Positions 1-12,860 of a DNA stretch of 32,000 bases are shown in pieces; the first letter of the stretch is position 1; each line of letters begins with the position of its first letter. The notes beneath the pieces are model-generated. The model saw only the letters and a list, made by a program, of their open reading frames with translations, searched no databases and was not told the DNA's origin. A program made the position numbers and the translations under genes. The stretch lies in assembly GCF_003351905.1 (NCBI RefSeq), contig NZ_CP022339.1:630001-662000 (forward strand). Direction: 5' to 3'. This stretch comes from Candidatus Saccharimonadota bacterium. GTDB taxonomy: Bacteria > Bacteroidota > Bacteroidia > Cytophagales > Amoebophilaceae.

Positions 1-174
1 TGGATACTGCTATTACTCGTTGGGTTAGGTCTATCTCTACGTCTGTCTCTACGTTTATCTTTAGGCCTATCTCTCGTGCTATTAATTATCTTGTGCCTTT
101 TGTGCCTTGTTATCGTGTGCGTGATCCTGCTGCTCAAGCCTAAGCAAAATAGTTCTACTATGTGCTTCGTATAG
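1..174 (+). CDS. 3' end of a CDS cut by the window edge, with a Leu-rich hydrophobic (membrane-anchor-like) C-terminus
   Basis: Frame +1 is open from nt 1 to TAG at 172-174 (...GLSLRLSLRLSLGLSLVLLIILCLLCLVIVCVILLLKPKQNSSTMCFV*). Four 12-nt periodic units at 31-78 encode L-S-L-R-like repeats. There is no start codon in the window, so it is absent from the ORF track. Confidence 0.3.
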   Translation, partial: WILLLLVGLGLSLRLSLRLSLGLSLVLLIILCLLCLVIVCVILLLKPKQNSSTMCFV

Positions 175-425
175 ATTGTTATATTTCCTTTTATACCTTT
201 TTTTACTAGTTTTTCAAATATACTTTCTTCAACTCAACCCTTGCGCTGCAAAAGGTTTACCCACTAAAACTTTTGTACTATACCTTTATAATAAAATTTA
301 TTTCCATCTATATAGTTGTATTTTTCTTATATTTTTTTAAATAATCTATTGATATGCAAATTTAGATAGTAAGCCATTGCGTAAAATTGTTTTTTAGCGG
401 TGTAATGTTAAACGTATAACTCGGT

Positions 426-1637
426 ATGGAACATGGACGCATTTTTATATTGTGGTTACTCCTATTAAGTGGTTGCCATACGGACATTAAGCAGGATGTG
501 CATCCTGGGGATCCCTCTTTTGTTGCGGGTCCCATGTATCTTACGCATGCTTCTGGTGCTGCTGATTTTGATTCTTCTGTTGCTTCTGCTTTTATGACTG
601 CTGCGGCTGCTCGTGTGGATGCGGCTGATGCGGATGCGGCTGCTCGTGCTGCGGCTGCTCGTGCCAATACTGCTCTTGCGCGTGCTTTCCCTCTTGATGG
701 TGGTACGCCTGTTCGGGCTACTATTTCTGGGTCTGCTGTTTTTGCTTGTACTAATGCTGCCGCTGCTTATATGCGTGTTGCTGCATCTGCTGCTGCAGCA
801 GCAGATGCGTATCTAGTTGCTGCGCGTGCTGCGTATGATGTTGGCCATCCGGTTGCTTATGCCCATGCTTCTGGCTATGCTGATGCATATACTTGTACTT
901 CTGTTTCTGCTTTGACTGCTGCGGCGTCTTTTGATGCTGCTGCTAAGGCTGCTGCTGTTTCGCATGTGGTTGCTGCTAAGGCTGCTGTTGCTGTTTCGCA
1001 TGCCGGTGATCATGCTGCTGTTTTTGCTGCTGCTGCTAGGGCTGCTGCTACTAAGGCTGCTACCTATGCTACTTCTGTGGCTCGTTCTGCTAATTTGTCT
1101 ACTACAGTTGGCTGTATACGTATGGTTTCTGCTCATGTTGCTTCTATTGCTTCTGCTGCCCGTGCTGCTCATACGGCTCGTGTTGAGGCTGATTCTGCAA
1201 CTCATTCTGCAGATTGTGCTAGGGTTTATGCATATACTGCTCATGCTGCTGTTTCTGCTGCTGCTGCTATTTGTGCACATGCTGATGCTGTGTTTGCGAC
1301 TACTGATGCTGTATTTGCTTATGACCGTGTGGTTGAGGTTGCTGATGCACATATTAATAATGCACGTAAAATTGCTTCTATTAGGGTCCATAATGATACG
1401 GCTTCTGCTGCTTATGAGCGTGCCAGTTCTGCTTCTGTTGATGCTGCTACTGCTGCTGCTGGAGCTACTAAAGCAGCAGCAGCAGTGAGTCGTTTTGCTG
1501 CTGTAGCTGATGTTTCGTCTGTTGAGTCTTCTGTTTCGGATCTATTTGCTGCTGCTGCTCGTGCTGCTGCTGTTGTTGTTGACGCTATTCGTCTGCATGC
1601 TGCTACTGCTGCGAATGCTGTTGCTGCTGCCATATAA
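426..1637 (+). CDS. Alanine-rich predicted lipoprotein, unknown function (paralog 1)
   Basis: The N-terminus MEHGRIFILWLLLLSGC has a hydrophobic core and a canonical lipobox (L-S-G-C). The mature part is dominated by A with S/V/D/H/T/Y/R and has almost no K/E/I/N/L/P. Codons are overwhelmingly T-ending (gct, tct, gtt, gat, cat, act, tat, cgt). It is paralogous to 1906..2616, including the 5' leader. Confidence 0.7.
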   Translation: MEHGRIFILWLLLLSGCHTDIKQDVHPGDPSFVAGPMYLTHASGAADFDSSVASAFMTAAAARVDAADADAAARAAAARANTALARAFPLDGGTPVRATISGSAVFACTNAAAAYMRVAASAAAAADAYLVAARAAYDVGHPVAYAHASGYADAYTCTSVSALTAAASFDAAAKAAAVSHVVAAKAAVAVSHAGDHAAVFAAAARAAATKAATYATSVARSANLSTTVGCIRMVSAHVASIASAARAAHTARVEADSATHSADCARVYAYTAHAAVSAAAAICAHADAVFATTDAVFAYDRVVEVADAHINNARKIASIRVHNDTASAAYERASSASVDAATAAAGATKAAAAVSRFAAVADVSSVESSVSDLFAAAARAAAVVVDAIRLHAATAANAVAAAI

Positions 1638-1905
1638 AAGCAGCCTGTATAGATGCTGCTCCGGGAATGGTGGCTATTTAAGGATAGCCCCATTGTAAAA
1701 TTTACGTCATAAGGTGCTTTTTTTCAGTACATTCTATTGCATTACCCATGCATGCATAGCGTAATCGACTTCCATGCATCTGGTTGTATATTTCTATGTT
1801 TATTTATATAATAACTTATGGTATGAATAATAATTACCCAATGCCCAGGCAGGTTGCTTAAGGTGTTTTTAACGATGTAATGCAAAACGCATAGCTAAGG
1901 AAAAC

Positions 1906-2616
1906 ATGGAACATAAAAAAGTTTTTGTACTGTGGTTATTAACGTTAGGTGGATGTAATGCGCTGGTGAAGCACCATATGCATGCTGTAAGTGAATCCTG
2001 TGTTACAACCACCCATACTCCGCATCATGGTGTGCCTTGTATGCGCCATGTTTCTTCTGGTTTTGTTTCTGGTTCTTCTTCCGCTTCTGCTCCGTTCTCT
2101 TCTTTGTCTTTGTCTGAAGTTTTTGGTCGTGCTTATCGTAATGCTTGCGACTTGTATGCTGCTAGTCGTGCTACTGTTTTGACGTGTTGTCCTGCTATTG
2201 AGTCTGTTGGTTATGCTAGTGATGATGTGTGTCATTTTGCTACTGCTGCACGTTCTGTTGCTAAGGCGGCTGCTTGCGCTGCTGCTGATGTGCGTTATTA
2301 TGCTGCGGCTGCTTGGGCTATTGTTGATCATGTAGTTGCTGTTCGTCGTGCGCCTATGGCTCGTGCGCGCTATATTGCTTTGGTGAAAGTTTTATTTGGT
2401 AAGATGACGGTTTTGGTTCGTTCTGCTAAGGCTGCTGCTGATGCTGCTACTGATGCTGCTAAGACTGTTGCTGATATAGCAGCTTCTGCTTTTGCTCTGG
2501 CTGCTGCTGATGTGGTTCGTGATTTTGCTTCGGCTGCTGCGTGTTCTGCTGCTGCTGCGCAGCGTTATGCGGCTCATACTGTTGCTGCAGCACGTTTTGC
2601 TGCTGCTATTGCATAA
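1906..2616 (+). CDS. Alanine-rich predicted lipoprotein, unknown function (paralog 2)
   Basis: The N-terminus MEHKKVFVLWLLTLGGC has a lipobox (L-G-G-C). A His/Cys-rich stretch is followed by an Ala-rich body with the same NNT codon style as 426..1637. The leader at 1861-1905 resembles 387-425. Confidence 0.7.
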   Translation: MEHKKVFVLWLLTLGGCNALVKHHMHAVSESCVTTTHTPHHGVPCMRHVSSGFVSGSSSASAPFSSLSLSEVFGRAYRNACDLYAASRATVLTCCPAIESVGYASDDVCHFATAARSVAKAAACAAADVRYYAAAAWAIVDHVVAVRRAPMARARYIALVKVLFGKMTVLVRSAKAAADAATDAAKTVADIAASAFALAAADVVRDFASAAACSAAAAQRYAAHTVAAARFAAAIA

Positions 2617-2886
2617 CAATAGATTAATAATAGACCATATCCTTCAACCATCTATTATAATGGCCTCTTTTTGCATATATTTGCGCATGTATCTGATTCG
2701 CACATGACCTGTAGCGTTTTGAAAGAAGGCTATCCTTAGAGGGGAGGCGTACAAATGGTAGACTATTTATGACACAATCTATTTAGGCCCATTTGCTTTT
2801 AAAAAACCTTTTAGCTACCTTTCAGTTAATAGGAAGCGCAATTAGTTATTGAGCGTGACTGTCTACCAAAAGTAAATAGATTAAAT

Positions 2887-3129
2887 ATGCATTTATCTAT
2901 CATTGCGCCTAATCGTAGGCTTTTTAATGGAGAGGTGGATAGTGTCATGTTGCCAGGTGCACTTGGTCCATTTCAGGTGCTTTCTGATCATGCACCTACT
3001 TTAAGTAGTTTCATAGCAGGAAAGATCACTTATACAGTTGGGTCTACCTCATCTTCCCTTTCAGTAAAGGGTGGTTTTACCTCGGTAGCTAATAACCAGG
3101 TTAGGGTAGTTTGTGAGCCTAGCGTATAG
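2887..3129 (+). CDS. atpC: F0F1 ATP synthase epsilon subunit (short, beta-sandwich-only form)
   Basis: MHLSIIAPNRRLFNGEVDSVMLPGALGPFQVLSDHAPTLSSFIAGKITY matches the conserved AtpC N-terminal pattern (L.I.tP.. .f.G.v.sV.lPG..G.fgvL..HAP.i..l..G.i). The 80-aa length is typical of Bacteroidetes AtpC. Confidence 0.75.
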   Translation: MHLSIIAPNRRLFNGEVDSVMLPGALGPFQVLSDHAPTLSSFIAGKITYTVGSTSSSLSVKGGFTSVANNQVRVVCEPSV

Positions 3130-3481: not shown

Positions 3482-4042
3482 ATGTTGCATCATTGCACTA
3501 GTACTATATTATCTGAAGTAAACCAATACATTCAATCTAAAACGAATGTAAAGGGGCCAGCTATATCCCTGTCAATTTTAGGAAATTCCCAAATAGAAAG
3601 CAAATATTCCAAGGGAATTTTTATGAGGTTGGTAGATATTGCTTCAGTAGAACTGCGCAGCAACCCTACGCAATATGTGCCACAGGGGGATGGTTTTGTT
3701 TTACGTAAAGTACCAGAAGCATTTAGCCTTTATTTCTTATTTTCTACAGATTATAAGGCAGCCGACTTATTAAAAAATTTAGAATTACTTGCTTATGTGG
3801 CAGCATTTTTTCAACATAAGTCGCATTTTGATGTTGCTAACACCCCTGTTTTACAGGAGATTGGGATTGACAGTTTTTCAGTTGAGTTAGTAAAGATGGC
3901 GCCATCGGAGCGGTCCATGCTTTGGAAAAGTTTACATACGCCTTATAGTCCTTCTTTGCTCTATAAGGTAGGTCTTATATTTATAGGAGATGCTGCGATG
4001 GATTTAAAGGTAGTATCCGCATTTTCATCACGTGAGCGGTAA
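3482..4042 (+). CDS. CIS cap / tail-terminator-like protein (DUF4255, Afp16/Pvc16 N-terminal domain family)
   Basis: FMRLVDIASVELRSNPTQYVPQGDGFVLRKVPEAFSLYFLFS and SMLWKSLHTPYSPSLLYKVGLIFI line up with the DUF4255 signature as I recall it from Pvc16 (..LYDI.ENVELRSNEP....G......PPL.....YLVTA ... EFW.AL....RPSL...V). It lies in a same-strand block with the sheath and tube genes. Confidence 0.75.
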   Translation: MLHHCTSTILSEVNQYIQSKTNVKGPAISLSILGNSQIESKYSKGIFMRLVDIASVELRSNPTQYVPQGDGFVLRKVPEAFSLYFLFSTDYKAADLLKNLELLAYVAAFFQHKSHFDVANTPVLQEIGIDSFSVELVKMAPSERSMLWKSLHTPYSPSLLYKVGLIFIGDAAMDLKVVSAFSSRER

Positions 4043-4893
4043 TGGCATTTATAACAAAATTATTTCGTATAGTTATTTCAAATGGTTATTATAAATCTAA
4101 TAAGCCTCAGAATGACTTCGATATAGCGCCAACCCAGGCTACTACCTCTTGGATGGCCGCACGTAGGGTGCGTCTGTTAGGTCACCCAGATGGTATAGAG
4201 TTGATATGGCTTTCACAGGATTATGATCATCCGTTGGCGTTATTTAAAAAAAAGGCAGCGGGCATTACCCTTTCCTTTGTGGTGACATTAAAAAATAGCC
4301 AACTATTGAATCTTGCAGAATTAGAAGCAGGGTACCCAATCGGTCAAGTCTATTATTTGCATAATCGGCATACGGACCCTCATCTGCTACATAGCAAAGT
4401 CTCTATGGGTAAGTCGGATCTAGTAAAAATTCAAGATGTGCCTCATTACCCAGCCGGGTTAGGTTGGAATGTTTTTGCCATGATTGATATAGATCTTACC
4501 CGTTTTGTGCATGCTTTATCTGAGCAAAAAGATAGTGCCTTAGTCGAGCCTATTACCTATACCATTAAGATTCAAAATCGTGCTACCTTTTGGCGGTATT
4601 ATTTCGTAGATACCAACCAGCAGCTTGGTAAGGCGCTAAAGATTCTATCCAAAGGAGATGCCTCTTATTTTGGTGCAGTAAAGGCTTTGCCAGAACACCC
4701 CCATACCTATTGTGCAGAATCTACCATGCCCATGGAGCTTTGTGATCGATACGACCGTTCTTTTTCACTTTGCAAACTAGGCGGTGCAAAAGGCGAGACC
4801 ATATTATTAGAAAAATTGCCTTATCCTACCTATGACTCGCTCAAAAAGGATAAGGGGAAGAAACGCTATAGTGATATAGTTGTATATGTTTAG
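4042..4893 (+). CDS. Hypothetical protein, CIS-cluster associated (no family recognised)
   Basis: A 283-aa ORF with ordinary composition. Its ATG overlaps the TAA of the upstream cap-like gene (TAATG at 4040-4044), which implies translational coupling. It sits 45 nt upstream of the sheath gene. Confidence 0.6.
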   Translation: MAFITKLFRIVISNGYYKSNKPQNDFDIAPTQATTSWMAARRVRLLGHPDGIELIWLSQDYDHPLALFKKKAAGITLSFVVTLKNSQLLNLAELEAGYPIGQVYYLHNRHTDPHLLHSKVSMGKSDLVKIQDVPHYPAGLGWNVFAMIDIDLTRFVHALSEQKDSALVEPITYTIKIQNRATFWRYYFVDTNQQLGKALKILSKGDASYFGAVKALPEHPHTYCAESTMPMELCDRYDRSFSLCKLGGAKGETILLEKLPYPTYDSLKKDKGKKRYSDIVVYV

Positions 4894-4938
4894 TTTAAAC
4901 TTAATTTAACTTTTATATAATTCATAAAATCAAATAAA

Positions 4939-6426
4939 ATGGCTGAAAATTTAAAAACTCCCGGCGTGTACATCGTCGAGAAGGATACGGGTGCCAACGC
5001 CGTGGTTCAAGTATCAACCGCAGTTCCTGCTTTTATAGGCTTCACAGAAAGAGCTGAAATTAATGGAAAGTCGTTTCATATGAAACCTGTTCAGATTTCT
5101 TCGCTTTCTGAATTTGAGTTGTTTTTTGGTGGACCAGCAGTACCTGTCTATACCATTAAGGAGGTAACCAGTGGAGACAAAGATTTGGTGATGAATGGCA
5201 AGTCTTATGTCATGGAACAGAGTCTAAATTCTACATTTTATCTATATAATAGTTTAAAGCTATTTTTTGATAATGGTGGAGCAGATTGTTTTATTGTCTC
5301 TGTTGGTCAGTATGGTGACCCAAATGTACAGTTAGCAATTACACCAGATGTATTTAAACAAGGTATAGATGCCTTAGCTGGAGAGGAGGTGCCTACCATG
5401 TTGTTAATGCCAGATTCACTCTTATTAGACGAGGAAGATGCCTCTTACTATGCGGTGCAGACCTATGGACTGGCCCATTGTGGTAAGTATCTGAATAAAG
5501 TAGCATTATTTGATATATGGGGTGGTAATAAGGAATTATCTATCGAGGATAAGAACAAATATGTAGATAGGTTTCGTGAATATATTGGATTAGATAATTT
5601 GAGTTATGGTGCTGCCTATTATCCATGGGTTAAAACCAATATTATCCCATTGAATAGCATTGATTACAAAAACTTCGATTTAGAGTCGCTCAAAGGTGTA
5701 TTACAAGAAGAACACAAAACCATGTTGGCCAATCTAATCAGTGCTACTACAGAGAAAGAGAAAGTCTATTGGGATGCTGGGCTAAAGAATACCAGTAAGG
5801 AGTACAAATTACTGCGTAAAACCATTGCCGATCGGTTGAATATTCTTCCAGCTGCTCCGGCTATGGCTGGGTTGTATACTAGAACCGATAAAGCAAGAGG
5901 GGTATGGATTGCGCCGGCCAACCAAAACTTAAATTCTGTGGTAGAGCCCATGGTTAAGATTACCCATGAAGAACAAGAAGCACTGAACGTAGATGGCATT
6001 AGTGGCAAGTCGATCAATGCCATTCGGACCTTTAAAGGAGCCGGTGCAGCAGTCGTTTGGGGTGCCAGAACTTTGGCAGGAAATAGTCCAGAATGGCGGT
6101 ATATTAACGTTAGGAGGTTGTTTATCCTTATTGAGCAATCGATTAAAAATGCAGCTTTTTCCGTTGTCTTTAGGCCAAACGTTCCCGTTACCTGGGCAGT
6201 TGTACAGGGCATGATTTCCAACTTCTTAACCAACCTTTGGAGACAAGGTGCTTTGGTAGGGGCAAGTCCTGCAGAGGCATTTACCGTCCTTTGTGGATTA
6301 GGTGAGACCATGTCTCAGGATGATGTGAATGAAGGCATTATGCGCATTTCCGTAAAAGTGGCAGCGCCTAGACCAGCTGAGTTTATTGTGATCACATTTG
6401 AACAAAAAATGGGTGCAGATGGTTAA
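4939..6426 (+). CDS. Contractile sheath protein (phage tail sheath / Afp2-4 / TssBC-like)
   Basis: The N-terminus MAENLKTPGVYIVEKDTG..VSTAVPAFIGFTERA is the classic sheath start (TPGVYIEE...S.avaafvG). The C-terminal block GVWIAPAN..L..V......T..EQ..LN..G...INAIR.F.G.G..VWGARTL....EWRYINVRRLF..IE.SI is the tail-sheath C-terminal domain pattern. Confidence 0.95.
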   Translation: MAENLKTPGVYIVEKDTGANAVVQVSTAVPAFIGFTERAEINGKSFHMKPVQISSLSEFELFFGGPAVPVYTIKEVTSGDKDLVMNGKSYVMEQSLNSTFYLYNSLKLFFDNGGADCFIVSVGQYGDPNVQLAITPDVFKQGIDALAGEEVPTMLLMPDSLLLDEEDASYYAVQTYGLAHCGKYLNKVALFDIWGGNKELSIEDKNKYVDRFREYIGLDNLSYGAAYYPWVKTNIIPLNSIDYKNFDLESLKGVLQEEHKTMLANLISATTEKEKVYWDAGLKNTSKEYKLLRKTIADRLNILPAAPAMAGLYTRTDKARGVWIAPANQNLNSVVEPMVKITHEEQEALNVDGISGKSINAIRTFKGAGAAVVWGARTLAGNSPEWRYINVRRLFILIEQSIKNAAFSVVFRPNVPVTWAVVQGMISNFLTNLWRQGALVGASPAEAFTVLCGLGETMSQDDVNEGIMRISVKVAAPRPAEFIVITFEQKMGADG

Positions 6427-6443
6427 GGCACACACCTGTCTGT

Positions 6444-6469
6444 CTATAGGGGGTATTTTCCCCCTATGG
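6444..6469 (+). terminator. Strong stem-loop immediately after the sheath gene (partial terminator, attenuator or mRNA stabiliser)
   Basis: ataggggg (6446-6453) pairs perfectly with ccccctat (6460-6467) around the loop tatttt. The stem is extendable by c6444-g6469 and t6445-g6468. It is followed by a T-rich sequence (ggctatttgcttataatttt). Confidence 0.4.
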
Positions 6470-6511
6470 CTATTTGCTTATAATTTTAAAAACATTTAAA
6501 ATAAAATAATC

Positions 6512-6976
6512 ATGGCTAATAATTTGTTAGTACCTTCTATCGTCCATTTTAATTTGGGCGCTTCAAAGGTTAGTATAACGGATTACCATATAGCAATTAC
6601 TATAGAAAATGGATCCGAATATATTAGATCAGTTAATGCGCAAGGTAAGTCCACTTATGCTATATCTAAAGGAGAGCAAATTGCACAAAAGGCTGATATT
6701 AAAGTTTCTATACTTAAAGCGCCAGATGGGGGATTTGATGATGATATTAAAAAATTAGAAAAAAACTTAGATGCCGCAAAAGAAAATGATCCTAAAAAAT
6801 ATGTGGAAGATATGCTGTTTAGTTTTGCAACCAATGATGATAAGCCATTTGCACATATACAATTCCGGGGATATGTTTCTCACATAGAACCAGACGTAGA
6901 TCCTGAGACTCAAATACCGTTAGCGGTAGCTGAACTTTCTGTTTATGATCCAATGAGTTTTGTAATTAAAGAATAG
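6512..6976 (+). CDS. Small CIS-cluster protein, possible divergent tube/Hcp-fold protein
   Basis: It is 154 aa, directly downstream of the sheath gene on the same strand, and the size is typical of tube proteins. The alternating beta-strand-like pattern and the FAHIQFRGYV..I motif loosely resemble Bacteroidetes Hcp/TssD. I cannot see a firm family signature. Confidence 0.45.
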   Translation: MANNLLVPSIVHFNLGASKVSITDYHIAITIENGSEYIRSVNAQGKSTYAISKGEQIAQKADIKVSILKAPDGGFDDDIKKLEKNLDAAKENDPKKYVEDMLFSFATNDDKPFAHIQFRGYVSHIEPDVDPETQIPLAVAELSVYDPMSFVIKE

Positions 6977-7043
6977 ATTACTGATCCATTATTGAGTTTT
7001 TTTAAAATTAAGTAGCTTAACTAGAATTTGATAAAAAAATATT

Positions 7044-7487
7044 ATGCAAAGAGTAACTATTGATTATAAACACTTTAATAAAGCAGGTTTTGATGGTAAA
7101 ACTTGTAGTGTTTTGGGTATGGGTATACCAAATCAAAAAATATCGACCTCAGCAATCGTATATGATACGGCAGCTTCTGCACCACTTCATTATAATCAAC
7201 GCAGTGCTCCAAAGATTGTAACGTTCACTGTAGACTTCTTGCCTTATATAACTAGTAAACATTTATTATCAAAAGCAGATAGCTTAGTTAAAGAAGTGTT
7301 TGAGAGTAAATATAATCCAGAACCATTGACCTATTGTATACATAAAAAAGATGGTGCAATAGATACAAAAAAAACTGTAAATGACGTTATCATACAAAAC
7401 GTAAAGTTATTTTTGGATAGGAAAAACGAAGCTACAGGTGAAAAAGGGTATGTTCGTATACGTTTTACTTTACAAGGTTTAGTATAA
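7044..7487 (+). CDS. Small CIS-cluster protein, tube-sized, family not recognised
   Basis: A 147-aa ORF between two tube-like genes on the same strand, with normal coding composition and no overlapping competitor ORF. Confidence 0.45.
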   Translation: MQRVTIDYKHFNKAGFDGKTCSVLGMGIPNQKISTSAIVYDTAASAPLHYNQRSAPKIVTFTVDFLPYITSKHLLSKADSLVKEVFESKYNPEPLTYCIHKKDGAIDTKKTVNDVIIQNVKLFLDRKNEATGEKGYVRIRFTLQGLV

Positions 7488-7535
7488 CCAGATAAAAAGT
7501 AATCACATGATGTTTATAACCTTGTTCTGATATTT

Positions 7536-7985
7536 ATGGTTGATTTTAATTTAGTCCATACCTATTCTTTTCAAGTAGAAGTACAGAAAGTAACAGATAA
7601 TAGTTCCCGAGAATATTTCTATAAGGTAGAAGGGTTAAATAATGCTTTGCGTATGGAGCCTTATCTACCTGGAGGGGCGAATAGACCTTATTATAGGGCT
7701 AATGCATGTGAAACGACTGATTTAATCTTGACGAGGCCCTTAGTAGAGGGGAAAACCAAAATAACCGTTTGGTGCGAAAAGGCCATTGACACAGGATTTT
7801 TTGAACTTACGCGAGCCCATATTTTTGTGCTTAGTAGGGAAGGTAAAATTCTGGCACGATGGGATATAGAAGATGTCTATCCAAAGGGTATAGCCATTAC
7901 ACCATTCCAGTTAAATGGTCCAACAGAATTTGGGGTAGGAGAAACCATTACACTGGGCTATTCTAGGTTGGTGCGTGCCAAATGA
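7536..7985 (+). CDS. CIS inner tube protein (phage T4 gp19-like / Afp1-Afp5 family)
   Basis: YSFQVEV....FYKVEGLNNALRMEPYLPGGANRPYYRANACETTDLILTRPLVEG...WCEKAID....AHIFVLSREGKILARWDIEDVYPKGIAITPFQLNG...VGETITLGYS follows the tail-tube consensus (F.V.I....F..VSGL..E.ev.EYreGG.n...hKlPG...y.nlTLkRG......l..W........I.LlD..g.....W....AwP.k.....L.a.....v.iE.lel.he). Confidence 0.85.
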   Translation: MVDFNLVHTYSFQVEVQKVTDNSSREYFYKVEGLNNALRMEPYLPGGANRPYYRANACETTDLILTRPLVEGKTKITVWCEKAIDTGFFELTRAHIFVLSREGKILARWDIEDVYPKGIAITPFQLNGPTEFGVGETITLGYSRLVRAK

Positions 7986-8157
7986 TAGCAGGAATAGACC
8001 TTTTTGCAACCTATTTGTGGTGTACAATGGTGAGCAGTGACGTTAGTCACCGGCATACCAAATCTATTCGGAGGAGCATAGACAAGCTGTACCGCCAAAT
8101 CATCATGAGACAGTGGCTTCGAAAGAGGTCTAGTGTAGCAAATAAATTGTATGGATT

Positions 8158-8328
8158 ATGGCAGTTAAAATTAATGAATTCGTGATTCAGTTTAAGGTGC
8201 ATGAAGCCAGTCAACCAGTAGAAAACACGACCAATAAGCCAGTTGGTTACTTACCGGATAGGACGGAGCAGCAAGATTTGGTAAGGGAGGTGGTTGACGC
8301 ATTATTAGAAGATCGAGAAGCAAGGTAA
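8158..8328 (+). CDS. Small Afp6/Pvc6-like protein (DUF5908-like). This ORF is not in the supplied track.
   Basis: I translated it by hand: ATG at 8158 to TAA at 8326-8328 gives the 56-aa MAVKINEFVIQFKVHEASQPVENTTNKPVGYLPDRTEQQDLVREVVDALLEDREAR. The start M.(I/V)(K/E)I.E(L/F).I...V, the polar middle and the acidic helical end ...L(E/K)..(K/R)ER resemble the small protein found between tube and Afp7 genes in eCIS loci. Its position matches, ending 14 nt before the Afp7-like gene. Confidence 0.55.
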   Translation: MAVKINEFVIQFKVHEASQPVENTTNKPVGYLPDRTEQQDLVREVVDALLEDREAR

Positions 8329-8342
8329 AACAACCTCCAGGT

Positions 8343-9665
8343 ATGAGTAACGTTAGTAAACTAGTTATTAAAGCATGTAGGGACAATAAGTTTTCTTCTT
8401 TTATAGGGGAATTTATTACATCTATTAATCCAGAGAACTTGGTTATTAAAAGTGCTGTATCCTACCATATTCCTGGAGGAACTCCTCCTAGTGCCCATTT
8501 GCTTAAATACCGTGGATCCCCTCCTAAGTTGCTTTCTTTTAGTCTTTTATTTGACAATACAGGGATTATGCCTGGTAGCAATACCATTGCTGTGATGGAG
8601 CAAGTCAAGCAACTACAAGATGTTGCCTATAGCGTCCAGAAAAAAAATAATGCCCCGAATTACATTCGTGTAATCTGGGGGCAGATTGATTTTAAAGGAA
8701 GATTGGTGGATCTAGATATGATCTATTCTATGTTTCAAGTAGATGGTACGCTGGTTAGAGCCGAGGCACATATCGCTGTATTGGAGGAGCTGGTCCCTGT
8801 AGGGAGAGGGGAATCTGCTGCAGGTGTAGATAGCGACTATGCAAAAGCATCGGGTGCAAGTGCAACCTCGAAGGGTTCATCTAGTCAAAGGGGTGGCCCC
8901 CCGCCCTCTTATCAGGAGGCCACTGCGCCCCCTCCTTCTTATCAGGCAGCTGTTGCTGCACCGCATCAGGAGGCCTTTGCACCTACCCCTAATGGGATGA
9001 ATGGCGCCTACAGTGGTGCACCACCGGGTGCCTATGATGGAGGGGCTGACCAGATTTATCATGGATCTAATGATGCTGGTGGAGCGGTTTATGCCTCGTC
9101 CAGTGTGGCTACGGCTCAGTCTGGCAAGCCTATTTCCAGTGTAAAGCCGGTCTCCTCTAGCCATGGTGGCTATAGTAATGATGCTGATATTGGCCGTTCT
9201 AGTAACGGCTTACAAGGTGGTGTGGCGGGCAATGGCCCTGGAGGGAGTGGAGGAGGAGTTGGCGGGGGAGGTCATGGACCAGGTAGTGGGAAGGCTGGCA
9301 AGGCTACTACTGGAATAGGTAGCCCTGAAGGTAAAGCTGGTACAAGTGGTAGTAGCCATGGATCAGGCAGTTCTCCGACTGGATCTGCCAAAAGCAATAC
9401 GGCCTCAGGGAGTGGTAAAGTCAAAGGAAAAGATAGTAACTTTAAGGCGGGTAGCATGGTAGCTGCTGGTGCAGCTGGTAGTGCGGCAGTAGCAGCTGCT
9501 GCTGCAACTGGAGCAGATAGTTTGCGTAAAATTGATCTAAAGGGTAAGGGCCTCAATTTTTTAAGAAATAAAGTGAGTTGGCGGGATAGGCTCAAAATGA
9601 TTGTTAAATTTGTTAAAAAACAAGCAGGAAAAGCATATAATGCCGGAAAAAAGATGGTACAGTAA
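8343..9665 (+). CDS. CIS tube-initiator-like protein (Afp7/Pvc7 N-terminal tube domain) fused to a long low-complexity tail, with no LysM domain
   Basis: The N-terminal ~155 aa (KLVIKACRDNKFSSFIGEFITSINPENL...SFSLLFDNTGIMPG...NYIRVIWGQIDFKGRLVDLDMIYSMFQVDGTLVRAEAHIAV) match the CIS tube protein N-domain pattern (KL.I.A....F...vgeF.vm.NPE.ys......y....f.LvFDgTGv.p......P.fl.l.WG.l.FkcrL.sl.i.YtLF..dGtPlRA.a.v.f). Residues ~160-400 are G/S/A/P-rich. The C-terminus is an Ala/Gly hydrophobic stretch followed by a Lys/Arg-rich helix. Confidence 0.8.
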   Translation: MSNVSKLVIKACRDNKFSSFIGEFITSINPENLVIKSAVSYHIPGGTPPSAHLLKYRGSPPKLLSFSLLFDNTGIMPGSNTIAVMEQVKQLQDVAYSVQKKNNAPNYIRVIWGQIDFKGRLVDLDMIYSMFQVDGTLVRAEAHIAVLEELVPVGRGESAAGVDSDYAKASGASATSKGSSSQRGGPPPSYQEATAPPPSYQAAVAAPHQEAFAPTPNGMNGAYSGAPPGAYDGGADQIYHGSNDAGGAVYASSSVATAQSGKPISSVKPVSSSHGGYSNDADIGRSSNGLQGGVAGNGPGGSGGGVGGGGHGPGSGKAGKATTGIGSPEGKAGTSGSSHGSGSSPTGSAKSNTASGSGKVKGKDSNFKAGSMVAAGAAGSAAVAAAAATGADSLRKIDLKGKGLNFLRNKVSWRDRLKMIVKFVKKQAGKAYNAGKKMVQ

Positions 9666-9801
9666 AGCGGTTTTTAAAAAAGTAGGAAAAGTGCTTTGCA
9701 CTTACTGGATTTTCTCGCTATAGTTGTACCAAGTACAAAGGCCTTTTTTAAAGTGTTGGTGTCTATAGCGCTCATACGCATAACCACATTTAATCACTTC
9801 T

Positions 9802-11259
9802 ATGCGTTATATGAAATCTGTTGTTGTAGCTGTTTTTTTAACAGCTTGTGGGCATTTTATTGCTTATGGTAACACCAAACTTAAATCCAGTGTCATTGAG
9901 CATGCCAAGCGTGCGGTAGTTTCTCTTGATGTGCAGGCAGCCCTTACGGCCTATACTGCGCCTGGGAAGTTGCATGGAAATGGGGTAGTAATAGATAAAA
10001 AAATAGGCTATATTTTAACTTCTGCTACTACGGTTGGTCCCGCTATAGTAGCAGACTATACGGTTGGTTTTTTTAATGGTGTAGAGGCTAAAGCGAAAGT
10101 AGTTTATTATGATCCTTGGTTGGACTATGCGATTCTAAAGGTAGATCCATTGGTGCTTCCTAAAGAAATCCAGGCGATCAAGTTAAGTAGTAAGGAACCA
10201 TTGCTAGGCCAGTCTATTTTTACGATTGGTAAGAAAAAAAATACGCCTGCTGTAGTATATGCTGGAACCATAGATGCTACCAATTGTAGTGTGCAATGGA
10301 CCATGCCCCAACATTTTATTCGTGTGAGTATGCCCAGTAAGACTCATGCAGTTGGTTCTTTAATTTTCAATGAGGCTGGGGAGGGTATTGCTTTAAATTG
10401 TGCGGGTTCAGATACCGCGAATATTGGGTTGCATCTAGGCTATGTGCGTCAGGCGCTAGCTGCCTTAAAGCAAAACAAATTACCAGTTAGAAAGCATATC
10501 GGTGCGTTACTAGTTACTTATTCCATAGATGATGCCATCCGTTATGATCATCTTTCGCAAGCTTCACAAAAAGTGTATACTGCAAAATTTCCAAATGCAG
10601 AAAATAAAATCTTGCAAGTAGATAGTATACTTAAAGGTACACCAGCAGCGGGTAAACTTTTGCCTGGGGATTTAATTTGGGCGCTTAATGGTCAGTTGAT
10701 TGGCCCTAATCTCATAGATTTTGATATAGCGCTGGATAAATCACCAAAAGATTCAGTTTTGTTAACTGTTTTTCGAAATGGTTCCTTTCATGAGGTTGCT
10801 ATTCCTTGTTATAATTTACACAACCATCGGATCACTAAAATGGTTCAATTTGGCGGTGCTACTTTTTTTGAGACAGATGATTTTTGTAGTACGCTGGGTG
10901 GTGTTTCCCCTAAAACTTTGGCTGCTTGTATTGCAGAAACCAATACCATTTTCAAAGTACCTGCTTCGCATCAAAATTATTTCAATATTTTAGGCATGCA
11001 ATTTTTAGCTATTAATGGTAAGCCTGTGCAAACATTGGATGCGTTGATCACACTGATTCCAGAATTGGTTCATCAAAAATATTTTACAGTTTCCTATGTT
11101 AATCACTTGGTGCCATTAAATCATGGCATGTGGTCATCCTATGCGCATAGTTCCTATAAAGTGAATGTAGCATATGACTCCAACTTAGTATTGCCCAAAG
11201 TTTGGACATGGGATTCCATGCAGCTGGAATGGAAAGGTGAGGCAATTGTTTTGCAATAG
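9802..11259 (+). CDS. Secreted trypsin-fold/PDZ protein of the HtrA type, predicted catalytically dead (pseudoprotease), probable lipoprotein
   Basis: It aligns end to end with the 11409..12860 product and has the same 485-aa length. The His site reads GYILTSATTVGP (10021-10035) against GYILTNQHVIGD. The Ser site reads KTHAVGSLIFN (10345-10362) against KGGSSGSPIFN. The Asp context DPWLDYAILKV is kept. The N-terminus VVVAVFLTAC has a lipobox (L-T-A-C). Confidence 0.8.
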   Translation: MRYMKSVVVAVFLTACGHFIAYGNTKLKSSVIEHAKRAVVSLDVQAALTAYTAPGKLHGNGVVIDKKIGYILTSATTVGPAIVADYTVGFFNGVEAKAKVVYYDPWLDYAILKVDPLVLPKEIQAIKLSSKEPLLGQSIFTIGKKKNTPAVVYAGTIDATNCSVQWTMPQHFIRVSMPSKTHAVGSLIFNEAGEGIALNCAGSDTANIGLHLGYVRQALAALKQNKLPVRKHIGALLVTYSIDDAIRYDHLSQASQKVYTAKFPNAENKILQVDSILKGTPAAGKLLPGDLIWALNGQLIGPNLIDFDIALDKSPKDSVLLTVFRNGSFHEVAIPCYNLHNHRITKMVQFGGATFFETDDFCSTLGGVSPKTLAACIAETNTIFKVPASHQNYFNILGMQFLAINGKPVQTLDALITLIPELVHQKYFTVSYVNHLVPLNHGMWSSYAHSSYKVNVAYDSNLVLPKVWTWDSMQLEWKGEAIVLQ

Positions 11260-11408
11260 GGCTGGAGTTGCTTGCGTTATCCCATCCTATATGGAAGTTT
11301 TTAGAAGTGTGAAAGCCAAAAATCCATATTTAATCCTATCATCTTTTATGCTTTTTTTGCCTTAATGATTTGATCAGGTTGTTCTAATCGCTATTTACTA
11401 CAGTGCGT

Positions 11409-12860
11409 ATGAAAATAAATAGGTTAAAATCTAAATGCTGGATTCTATTTTTTACCCTTTTGCTGCATACGCCTATGCTTTTAGCCAAAGAGGTCTTCTC
11501 TGAAAAGGTAATTGAGCATGCTAAAAAGTCAGTAGTAACCATTGATGTAAATGCTGCTTTTGCAGCTTATGGAGAAGGTAGCAAGTGGAGCGGAACCGGT
11601 TGCGTGGTAGATAAGCAGCATGGCTACATCTTAACCAACCAACATGTAATAGGCGATGCTGTAGTGGGTAGTTATAAAGCAACCTTTTTTAATGGCATCC
11701 AACAAGAAGCCCATCTGATCTATTACGATCCATGGTTAGACTATGGATTTGTAAAAGTTTCCCCTACCGTTATTCCAAAAGAGGTTACGGAAACTACCTT
11801 TAGTAGCCATAATCCAGTTATAGATCAGCCTATTTTTATCGTTGGCAATAATGAAGGCTATAGCTTTTCTTTACATACAGGAGTGGTGGCAGATTTGTAT
11901 GGGGTTACAGGTGCCATGCCTCAACAATCGATTAAACTGAGTTTAAATACTAAGGGTGGGTCAAGTGGATCGCCCATTTTTAACAAAAATGGGCAGGCTG
12001 TAGGGCTTAATTATGCTGGCAATCGAACATTCGGGTTTGCTATCCATCCTGAATATATTCGGTATGCTTTGTCAGCGATTCGGCAAGGTAACTCCCCAAT
12101 TAGGAAACAAGTGGGCGTAATCACCAAATCTACACCTATTAAAGATGTAGTCCAGTATGATGGGTTATCCACCCAGCAGCAATACATTAAAACATTTCCT
12201 AATGGCGCTACTTCTGTTATTACAGTCCATCATGTGTTAGTTGGTAGTCCTGCGGCTGCCTTACTCTTTCCTGGAGATGTGATTTGGGCCATTAATGGTC
12301 ACCCAATAGGGCCTAATTTGGTTGCTTTCTATATGGCTATGAACAAAACTACGAAAGATTCTGTTCTATTAACCATTTTTAGGATGGGCCAGTGGCATGA
12401 TATCAAAATAGGGCTTTATGATCTCGAGGCGCATAAAATCACAAAAATGGTCCATTTTGGAGGGGCGCTTTTTTTTGAAATGGATGATTATTGTGCCAAA
12501 CTAAATCATTTATCTCCTAAAAGTTTGACTTTTGTGCATGTAGATGCAAACCATATGTTTCATAATGTTGCACCCAATAGAGTCGGTGAATTTAGGTTGA
12601 AAGTCTTATCTTTTAATAAAAAATCGGTTGCTGACCTTCAAGCATTAGTGGCAGTGATACCATCGTTAATCTCTAAAAAATACTTTACTATAGAATATAC
12701 TGATTTGTCTCCTTGTCATCTATTTGGTTCTGCGTTACACTTAGGTCCTAGGCCATCAAGGGCCTATGTAGCGTATGATACCCATCTTTCTCAGCCTAGA
12801 TCATTTATTTGGGATGAAGCAAGTCATCAATGGATTAGTTCACCTATTGGTATAAAATGA
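11409..12860 (+). CDS. Secreted HtrA-family (S1C-like) serine protease with C-terminal PDZ-like region, catalytic triad intact
   Basis: TNQHV (His codon 11643-11645), DPWLDYGFVKV (Asp) and GGSSGSP (Ser codon 11964-11966) are all present. The signal peptide is KCWILFFTLLLHTPMLLA/KE. The track starts at GTG 11403, but I prefer ATG 11409. Confidence 0.85.
   Translation: MKINRLKSKCWILFFTLLLHTPMLLAKEVFSEKVIEHAKKSVVTIDVNAAFAAYGEGSKWSGTGCVVDKQHGYILTNQHVIGDAVVGSYKATFFNGIQQEAHLIYYDPWLDYGFVKVSPTVIPKEVTETTFSSHNPVIDQPIFIVGNNEGYSFSLHTGVVADLYGVTGAMPQQSIKLSLNTKGGSSGSPIFNKNGQAVGLNYAGNRTFGFAIHPEYIRYALSAIRQGNSPIRKQVGVITKSTPIKDVVQYDGLSTQQQYIKTFPNGATSVITVHHVLVGSPAAALLFPGDVIWAINGHPIGPNLVAFYMAMNKTTKDSVLLTIFRMGQWHDIKIGLYDLEAHKITKMVHFGGALFFEMDDYCAKLNHLSPKSLTFVHVDANHMFHNVAPNRVGEFRLKVLSFNKKSVADLQALVAVIPSLISKKYFTIEYTDLSPCHLFGSALHLGPRPSRAYVAYDTHLSQPRSFIWDEASHQWISSPIGIK

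Follow-up and report, generated by a model that had tools for sequence, protein, structure and literature searches.

Tandem genes for a predicted active and a degenerate HtrA-family protease in Cardinium, and their relation to the Nma111/DEG7 branch

HtrA proteases are the textbook model of homo-oligomeric, allosterically controlled protein quality-control enzymes, and the best-known bacterial members, DegP and DegQ, are, to our knowledge, homo-oligomers without a dedicated dead partner. The fusion of a live and a dead protease module in a single polypeptide is usually described for fungi and plants, and, as far as we know, the degenerate second half of these proteins, Nma111 (Ynm3) of yeast and DEG7 of plants, has never been explained. 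Here we describe two tandem HtrA-family genes in a stretch of 32,000 nucleotides (contig NZ_CP022339.1, positions 630,001 to 662,000; hereafter the window, i.e., the whole stretch that was analyzed) from the genome of Cardinium, an insect symbiont. The upstream gene (copy A) encodes a protein without the catalytic His and Ser, and the downstream gene (copy B) a predicted active protease. For DEG7, an origin by duplication and fusion has been proposed, and its degenerate domain mediates trimerization (PMC3194040); it has also been noted earlier that bacterial proteins exist that are nearer to yeast Nma111 than to human HtrA2 (PMC5982838; PMC10565124). The features of the pair are as follows.

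9802..11259, + strand: copy A, dead HtrA-family paralog of 485 aa (open reading frame, ORF), with signal peptide, degenerate protease domain, PDZ1 and PDZ2
9802..9870, + strand: copy A signal peptide (aa 1-23, cleavage between MRYMKSVVVAVFLTACGHFIAYG and N), a hydrophobic N-terminal helix in the AlphaFold2 (AF2) model, with a lipobox-like LTAC inside
10027..10029, + strand: copy A Thr76, in the catalytic His column (F, L, I, M, P or Y in orthologs)
10351..10353, + strand: copy A Val184, in the catalytic Ser column (alignments with copy B and orthologs)
10480..11256, + strand: copy A PDZ1 (aa 227-336) and PDZ2, the C-terminal PDZ-like domain (aa 337-485), with PDZ_6 and PDZ_2 matches
11403..12860, + strand: copy B, predicted active HtrA-family serine protease, 485 aa from GTG (ORF)
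11403..11486, + strand: copy B signal peptide (aa 1-28, cleavage between HTPMLLA and KE), an N-terminal helix in the AF2 model; the LLA/KE site is conserved among orthologs
11643..11645, + strand: copy B catalytic His81 (TNQHV), from alignment to E. coli DegP
11739..11741, + strand: copy B catalytic Asp113 (DPWLDYG), from the same alignment
11964..11966, + strand: copy B catalytic Ser188 (GGSSGSP, the second Ser being the nucleophile), from the same alignment

For both proteins, the nearest relatives are annotated as Candidatus Cardinium hertigii or Cardinium endosymbionts. The two products align with each other nearly end to end, as the initial annotation of this DNA had stated, at 41% identity and 61% positives (BLASTP, E 1e-127). 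Both match the Pfam families Trypsin_2 (E 1.4e-13 for copy A, 2.6e-23 for copy B) and PDZ, and thus have the HtrA layout (MEROPS family S1C) of a trypsin-fold protease followed by at least one PDZ domain. The AF2 models (pLDDT 90.3 for copy A and 92.9 for copy B) consist of the protease domain, PDZ1 and PDZ2 in an HtrA fold; a Foldseek search against the PDB yields DegP and DegQ at E ~1e-24, and the best full-length superpositions of the copy B model are with plant Deg2 and Deg9 (TM score 0.54-0.55 over 474-483 columns). The further remark that both products are exactly 485 aa long applies to copy A; copy B reaches this length only from a GTG start, whereas the database gene call of 483 aa begins two codons in, at the ATG at 11409. 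This start agrees with orthologs that begin MKIN or MQIN, and copy B is probably 483 aa long. Among orthologs, copy A ranges from 481 to 497 aa and copy B from 464 to 487 aa.

The motifs of copy B fall on the E. coli DegP triad, in agreement with the earlier assignment, and H81, D113 and S188 are invariant across the 44 live members of the family. Of the triad, copy A retains the Asp (D108), with T76 and V184 occupying the His and Ser columns in gap-free alignments, so that the reported loss of both residues is confirmed. All ten of its orthologs likewise lack the catalytic His, the three deepest have Asn in place of the catalytic Asp, and their Ser column reads V, S, Q, T, Y, T, V, P, T, V; as far as these ten sequences indicate, the Ser position is unconstrained and varies freely. 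Without the full triad that defines an S1C peptidase, and that copy B possesses, copy A (T76, D108, V184) has to be classified as a non-peptidase homologue. A shift of the missing residues onto existing ones, for example the H of KTHAVGS, which had been named as an outcome that would overturn this assignment, did not materialize: BLASTP and MAFFT alignments of 29 and 107 sequences agree, with gap-free motifs, and rescue of the triad by re-alignment is ruled out. The His in question (H183) lies two residues before the Ser column and cannot restore the triad because the position is R, S, G, A, F or M in orthologs.

The dead copy is evidently maintained. Ratios of nonsynonymous to synonymous substitution rates (dN/dS; Nei-Gojobori, six Cardinium genomes) are 0.21-0.35 for copy A (about 0.27) and 0.19-0.32 for copy B (about 0.21), to be compared with 0.036 for the sheath gene, 0.18 for the gp19 tube gene, 0.09 for Pvc16_N and 0.19 for TatD at the same loci. 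By domain, the values are:

Protease domain: dN/dS 0.29 in copy A, 0.165 in copy B
PDZ1: dN/dS 0.21 in copy A, 0.19 in copy B
PDZ2: dN/dS 0.25 in copy A, 0.25 in copy B

Twenty-two alignment columns are conserved in live and variable in dead copies, 20 of them in the protease domain and two in the PDZ region; they include H81, V82, N150, G185, G186 and S188. In a further 81 columns, both copies are conserved and carry the same residue; these include the N-terminal helix region VIEHAK and the PxRKHIG loop where PDZ1 begins. This pattern indicates that copy A is a preserved pseudoprotease in which relaxation is confined to the catalytic machinery and the protease domain: it has lost the catalytic His and Ser and the oxyanion-loop glycines, and has kept the fold, the N-terminal helix and both PDZ domains under purifying selection. 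Its ORF is intact and full-length in every Cardinium examined except cBtQ1, the symbiont of Bemisia tabaci, as well as in deep relatives (38-50% identity), and dead orthologs reach Cardinium group C and a metagenome-assembled genome of Amoebophilaceae. The dead and the live clade are both old and predate the diversification of the Cardinium groups. The view of the initial annotation that the dead copy is maintained rather than decaying thus holds on both counts, the dN/dS values and the orthologs in deep relatives.

Live/dead tandems are found well beyond Cardinium. In the first set of loci that we inspected, every tandem pair of family members combined one protein with the complete His-Asp-Ser triad (HDS) and one dead copy; this set includes Cardinium groups A and B. 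The triad columns of the dead copies have been replaced in different ways:

Cardinium of Culicoides punctatus: YGS
Amoebophilaceae metagenome-assembled genome: YCH
Locus L007: YRC
Locus L008: RDV
Locus L019: SNN

A profile of 488 positions built from the 44 live members was searched against 1.84 billion representative proteins and recovered 618 at E <=1e-30. Among the best 150 of the 618, 136 were further proteins, eight of them full-length and dead, and two of these eight belong to pairs already counted. Of the loci of five other dead proteins, three are tandems with an HDS partner (L023, L024 and L026); in L025, the tandem partner of the dead protein P0232 is a family ORF truncated by the end of the contig, in which Asp and Ser are readable and the His column is missing; the fifth dead protein is at a contig edge, so that its upstream neighbor is unreadable. 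Wherever the neighborhood can be read, a dead member has a live one as its tandem partner (L004, L006, L007, L008, L019, L023, L024 and L026), often with a spacing of a few bases, up to ~20, or with a short overlap. In three metagenomic contigs (L023, 2411-5476; L025, 2-2732; L026, 2532-5488), a family member, which is HDS in L023 and L026 and truncated in L025, is followed by a dead HtrA and an RNase_T gene, the genes being 3-8 bases apart or overlapping by as much; these pairs form a lineage of their own, the live copies of which group with Holosporaceae-like proteins.

In the full-length tree (all trees are neighbor-joining, NJ, with Kimura distances), each dead lineage branches beside the clade of its own partner, and a tree of PDZ1 and PDZ2 only, i.e., of columns in which the dead copies are not accelerated, agrees:

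Lineage i, Cardinium / Amoebophilaceae: bootstrap 86 full-length, 80 PDZ-only
Lineage ii, P0018: bootstrap 97-98 full-length, 97 PDZ-only
Lineage iii, P0059 / L019: bootstrap 95-97 full-length, 100 PDZ-only
Lineage iv, P0212 group with Holosporaceae-like live copies: bootstrap 77 full-length, 50 PDZ-only
Lineage v, P0206: bootstrap 97 full-length, 87 PDZ-only

These NJ trees suggest three or four independent origins of live/dead pairs by a conservative count, and likely five, and the fused form is an additional event. Besides Amoebophilaceae (Bacteroidota), the family has a member in the Holosporaceae bacterium 'Namur' (L020 3929-5404), an alphaproteobacterial endosymbiont of protists, and its presence in unrelated endosymbionts hints at horizontal transfer.

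The relationship to the fused eukaryotic proteins also follows from the profile search. Most of the best 150 of the 618 proteins are 460-540 aa long, and this set includes Nma111-type proteins of 943, 950 and 1025 aa that are matched in two stretches at E ~1e-87, each half spanning positions ~5-445 of the 488-position profile. All three have the Nma111/DEG7 architecture of Trypsin_2, PDZ and PDZ_1 (PF12812), and the 1025-aa protein comes from the choanoflagellate Salpingoeca punica. The 943-aa protein (L027 6001-8832) has an active N-terminal half, a degenerate C-terminal half with PF12812 and a Sec signal peptide, and is encoded within the neighborhood ndk-rlmN-pilW-rodZ-ispG; since this context is bacterial, the fused architecture exists in bacteria as well. 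In the NJ tree, the 485-aa family, the N-terminal halves of the Nma111-type proteins and their degenerate C-terminal halves form one clade with 100% bootstrap, with DegP-like sequences outside, so that the suspected resemblance to Nma111 and Deg7 is borne out at the level of the family. The initial annotation had gone on to suggest that the pair could be an unfused counterpart of these proteins; as a precursor, i.e., a direct unfused ancestor of Nma111, it is rejected by the tree, where the degenerate halves form a clade of their own apart from the Cardinium dead copies, and the sister of the Cardinium dead copy is its live partner and not the degenerate half. On this topology, the Cardinium duplication is independent of, and younger than, the internal duplication of Nma111 and occurred inside Amoebophilaceae.

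Instead of the single polypeptide of ~950-1100 aa typical of Nma111 and DEG7, in which an active N-terminal protease domain is joined to a degenerate C-terminal one, there are two ORFs 143 bp apart in the window. On the C-terminal domains, the only family match is to PF12812, at a weak 12-13 bits (E 0.1-0.2; cut-off 28), and this cut-off is passed by the relatives P0079, P0025, P0080, P0229, P0231 and P0237. With the Do subfamily model TIGR02037, the cut-off of which is 416 bits, the copies score 45 and 77, and both are far under the curated cut-offs of the NCBIfam models for DegP, DegQ and DegS.

With Nma111 and DEG7, the Cardinium pair shares the motifs TN(R/Q)HV, DP..D(F/Y)(G/A) and GGSSGSP and the pairing of a live with a dead protease module, both of which have PDZ domains of their own. 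The differences are that in Cardinium these are two separate genes for bacterial proteins predicted to be secreted, whereas Nma111 and DEG7 are single polypeptides of the nucleus or the chloroplast, and that the duplication in Cardinium appears to be independent and much younger. DegP and DegQ have the same catalytic triad and fold but are distant in sequence, with GNSGGP in place of the GSSGSP of the Cardinium family. The layout of protease, PDZ1 and atypical PDZ2 is common to plant Deg2 and Deg9, which, however, share only 14-16% identity with copy B, are homo-oligomers and belong to a different clade. Paralogous protease subunits within one oligomer, as proposed below for the Cardinium pair, are found in chloroplast Deg5-Deg8 and in ClpP-ClpR, where ClpR has lost its catalytic residues (PMC3194040); the Cardinium pair differs from Deg5-Deg8, both subunits of which are catalytically competent, and from Clp, which has an unrelated fold.

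In the papers that we searched, on Cardinium, an Amoebophilus transcriptome and HtrA pseudoproteases, we found no earlier description of the pair. The HtrA/S1C superfamily is well known, as are pseudoenzyme partners as a theme; what appears to be new is an HtrA pair of one live and one dead member that is bacterial, unfused, conserved across Cardinium and part of the Nma111-like branch, together with the repeated, apparently convergent origin of such pairs and a fused bacterial form.

Both proteins are probably exported to the periplasm. The lipobox that the initial annotation saw in copy A is present in the window strain as LTAC, but is confined to it, the orthologs having LTVS, LSV- or LTVF; conserved across copy A orthologs is a signal peptidase I-type site, (A/C)(Y/H)(G/A) before K, located after the lipobox position. 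A lipoprotein tether, which would call for a conserved [LVI][ASTVI][GAS]C, was rejected on these grounds, and the proposed membrane tethering of the dead copy is doubtful.

We propose that the pair constitutes a secreted, probably periplasmic, protein quality-control module of the HtrA family, from the GSSGSP-bearing, Nma111-like branch of S1C. Copy B is predicted to be a working serine protease with two PDZ domains. Copies A and B would assemble into a hetero-oligomer, in which the live subunit would perform the cleavage and the dead one would offer surfaces for assembly and, through its PDZ domains, bind substrates or activating peptides. A hetero-oligomer is proposed because the two-gene tandem, with its short gaps or overlaps, is recurrent and has also been fused, and by analogy with the trimerization of DEG7 through its degenerate domain. 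We hold this reading, in which both the physical association and the division of labor are inferred, to be somewhat better than an even bet. A broader version, to which we give only tentative credence, is that the Nma111-like branch is predisposed to live/dead heteromers, with at least three to five tandem duplications followed by inactivation and at least one fusion, that Nma111 and DEG7 are another instance of this tendency or descend from a bacterial fusion, and that the Cardinium complex is of an A3B3 type in which the dead subunits form the trimerization core and serve as a PDZ sensor.

The two-gene state in bacteria is of experimental value, since each polypeptide can be produced and mutated on its own and then combined with the other, which allows a direct test of what a dead HtrA protomer contributes, be it assembly, gating or substrate capture. 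The family as a whole provides natural replicates of pseudoenzyme evolution and, for Cardinium, the pair represents a conserved, expressed protease module, predicted to be secreted, in a very small genome.

Several observations weigh against a live/dead hetero-oligomer. In the window, the genes of copies A and B are separated by 143 bp instead of being translationally coupled. Within a flank of ~4 kb, L015, L016, L017 and L020 appear to encode a single live copy. In cBtQ1, copy A is reduced to its last 66 codons (L014 4013-4213), flanked by a CIS_tube gene and a copy B that are both intact, so that this strain amounts to a naturally occurring knockout of the pseudoprotease; in at least one host, copy A is accordingly dispensable and the live protease able to function in its absence. 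Relaxed selection or frameshifts in close relatives, which the initial annotation had listed as contrary evidence, are thus encountered in part, in the form of this deletion. Over the stretch compared, the remnant peptide matches the C-terminus of the intact ortholog P0002, and the deletion must therefore be recent. Finally, a tree of the protease domain only, which is near saturation, joins lineages i and iii, in conflict with the PDZ-only tree and with separate origins of these two lineages; the grouping reflects either long-branch attraction or an older shared duplication combined with gene conversion of the PDZ half, and the protease-only tree was excluded from the count of origins.

The alternative that fares best is that copy A acts alone in the periplasm, as a chaperone, holdase or PDZ adaptor independent of proteolysis, i.e., as a subfunctionalized paralog and not as a subunit of the live protease. 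It is known that DegP separates its chaperone from its protease function and that the inactive S210A mutant of DegP retains chaperone activity. In copy A, the PDZ domains and the fold are constrained as in the live copy, and the integrity of copy B in cBtQ1 after the loss of copy A implies that B does not strictly depend on A. Such a role is plausible and hard to tell from a heteromer by sequence data alone. However, the tight tandem with a live partner in unrelated lineages and the fused form point to physical co-operation; the transcript levels of Cardinium cEper1, which appear equal for the two genes, also speak against a separate role: normalized RNA-seq counts are ~994 for CAHE_0463, ~415 for CAHE_0464, ~411 for CAHE_0465 and ~22 for CAHE_0466 (PMC5698495, Tables S2 and S7). 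By synteny, CAHE_0464 and CAHE_0465 would be the dead and the live protease gene; their levels match each other and are distinct from those of both neighbors, and copies A and B are probably co-transcribed. A scan for promoters and terminators was uninformative, with 13 promoter-like sites against 12.9 expected and one terminator-like hairpin, located after the tube gene. All in all, we consider an independent chaperone or adaptor unlikely, though worth keeping beside the hetero-oligomer.

The position of the pair suggests another alternative, an accessory of the contractile injection system (CIS) encoded upstream, either a maturation protease or a cargo delivered to the host.

3482..9665, + strand: contractile injection system (antifeeding prophage (AFP)-like, type VI secretion system subtype iv (T6SSiv)), seven structural genes, with Pvc16_N, sheath, gp19-like tube, CIS_tube and other matches

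In the window, the pair directly follows the CIS_tube gene on the same strand, as the initial annotation pointed out, and a tatD gene on the opposite strand lies downstream. The order injection system, dead copy, live copy is kept in C. hertigii strains, another Cardinium, cEina3, cEhis1 and the symbiont of Nabis limbatus; counted by locus, the injection system is followed by the pair in L001, L002, L010-L012 and L014, the last (cBtQ1) minus most of copy A. By contrast, the orthologous dead and live genes of the Cardinium of Culicoides punctatus lie between an EamA transporter gene and mutL, and in the Amoebophilaceae metagenome-assembled genome the pair is found, in the order live then dead, between an ankyrin gene and polA. 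The adjacency is therefore lineage-specific, injection-system genes being absent next to the pair in these loci (L004 and L006); on this synteny, membership of the pair in the injection-system module was rejected. The family is, moreover, widespread without injection-system neighbors, the Sec-type signal peptides on both proteins would be unusual for such cargo, a terminator-like hairpin (9689-9703) lies 3' of the tube gene, and the published list of AFP-like genes of cEper1 ends at CAHE_0463 (PMC5698495). We therefore regard a function in the injection system as improbable.

That copy A is merely a decaying duplicate on its way to a pseudogene, with a frame kept intact by chance, is in our estimate highly improbable and already largely refuted, since, despite the deletion in cBtQ1 and the higher protease-domain dN/dS in copy A than in copy B, the ORF persists in the other Cardinium examined and in deep relatives at a dN/dS far below 1, and the dead and live clades are older than the diversification of the Cardinium groups.

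Regarding the injection-system genes themselves, the CIS_tube protein (window 8343-9665) is 440 aa long, and the tube domain is matched by residues 4-148 only; the remainder is a low-complexity tail rich in Gly, Ser, Ala and Pro that ends in a basic segment. The length of this protein varies between 425 and 440 aa among strains, and in L003 the gene is present as two ORFs.

Elsewhere in the window, AT skew is strongly negative (-0.28 to -0.38) over positions 1-3000, a region in which the ORFs 426-1637 and 1906-2616 have no Pfam match. An ORF of 223 aa with a beta-lactamase fold (window 16214-16885, - strand) matches positions 80-250 of a 329-position Pfam profile and is probably the remnant of a truncated gene. 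The 23S rRNA (18044-20941) and 5S rRNA (21025-21136) genes are preceded by thyA on the opposite strand, with no 16S rRNA gene upstream, so that the rRNA operon is unlinked, a state shared with many reduced genomes; no tRNA gene turned up anywhere in the window. Immediately after the 5S rRNA gene, the window encodes a protein of 663 aa (21280-23271) that consists almost entirely of leucine-rich repeats of the LRR_6 (ribonuclease-inhibitor) type and is a candidate eukaryote-like host-interaction protein.

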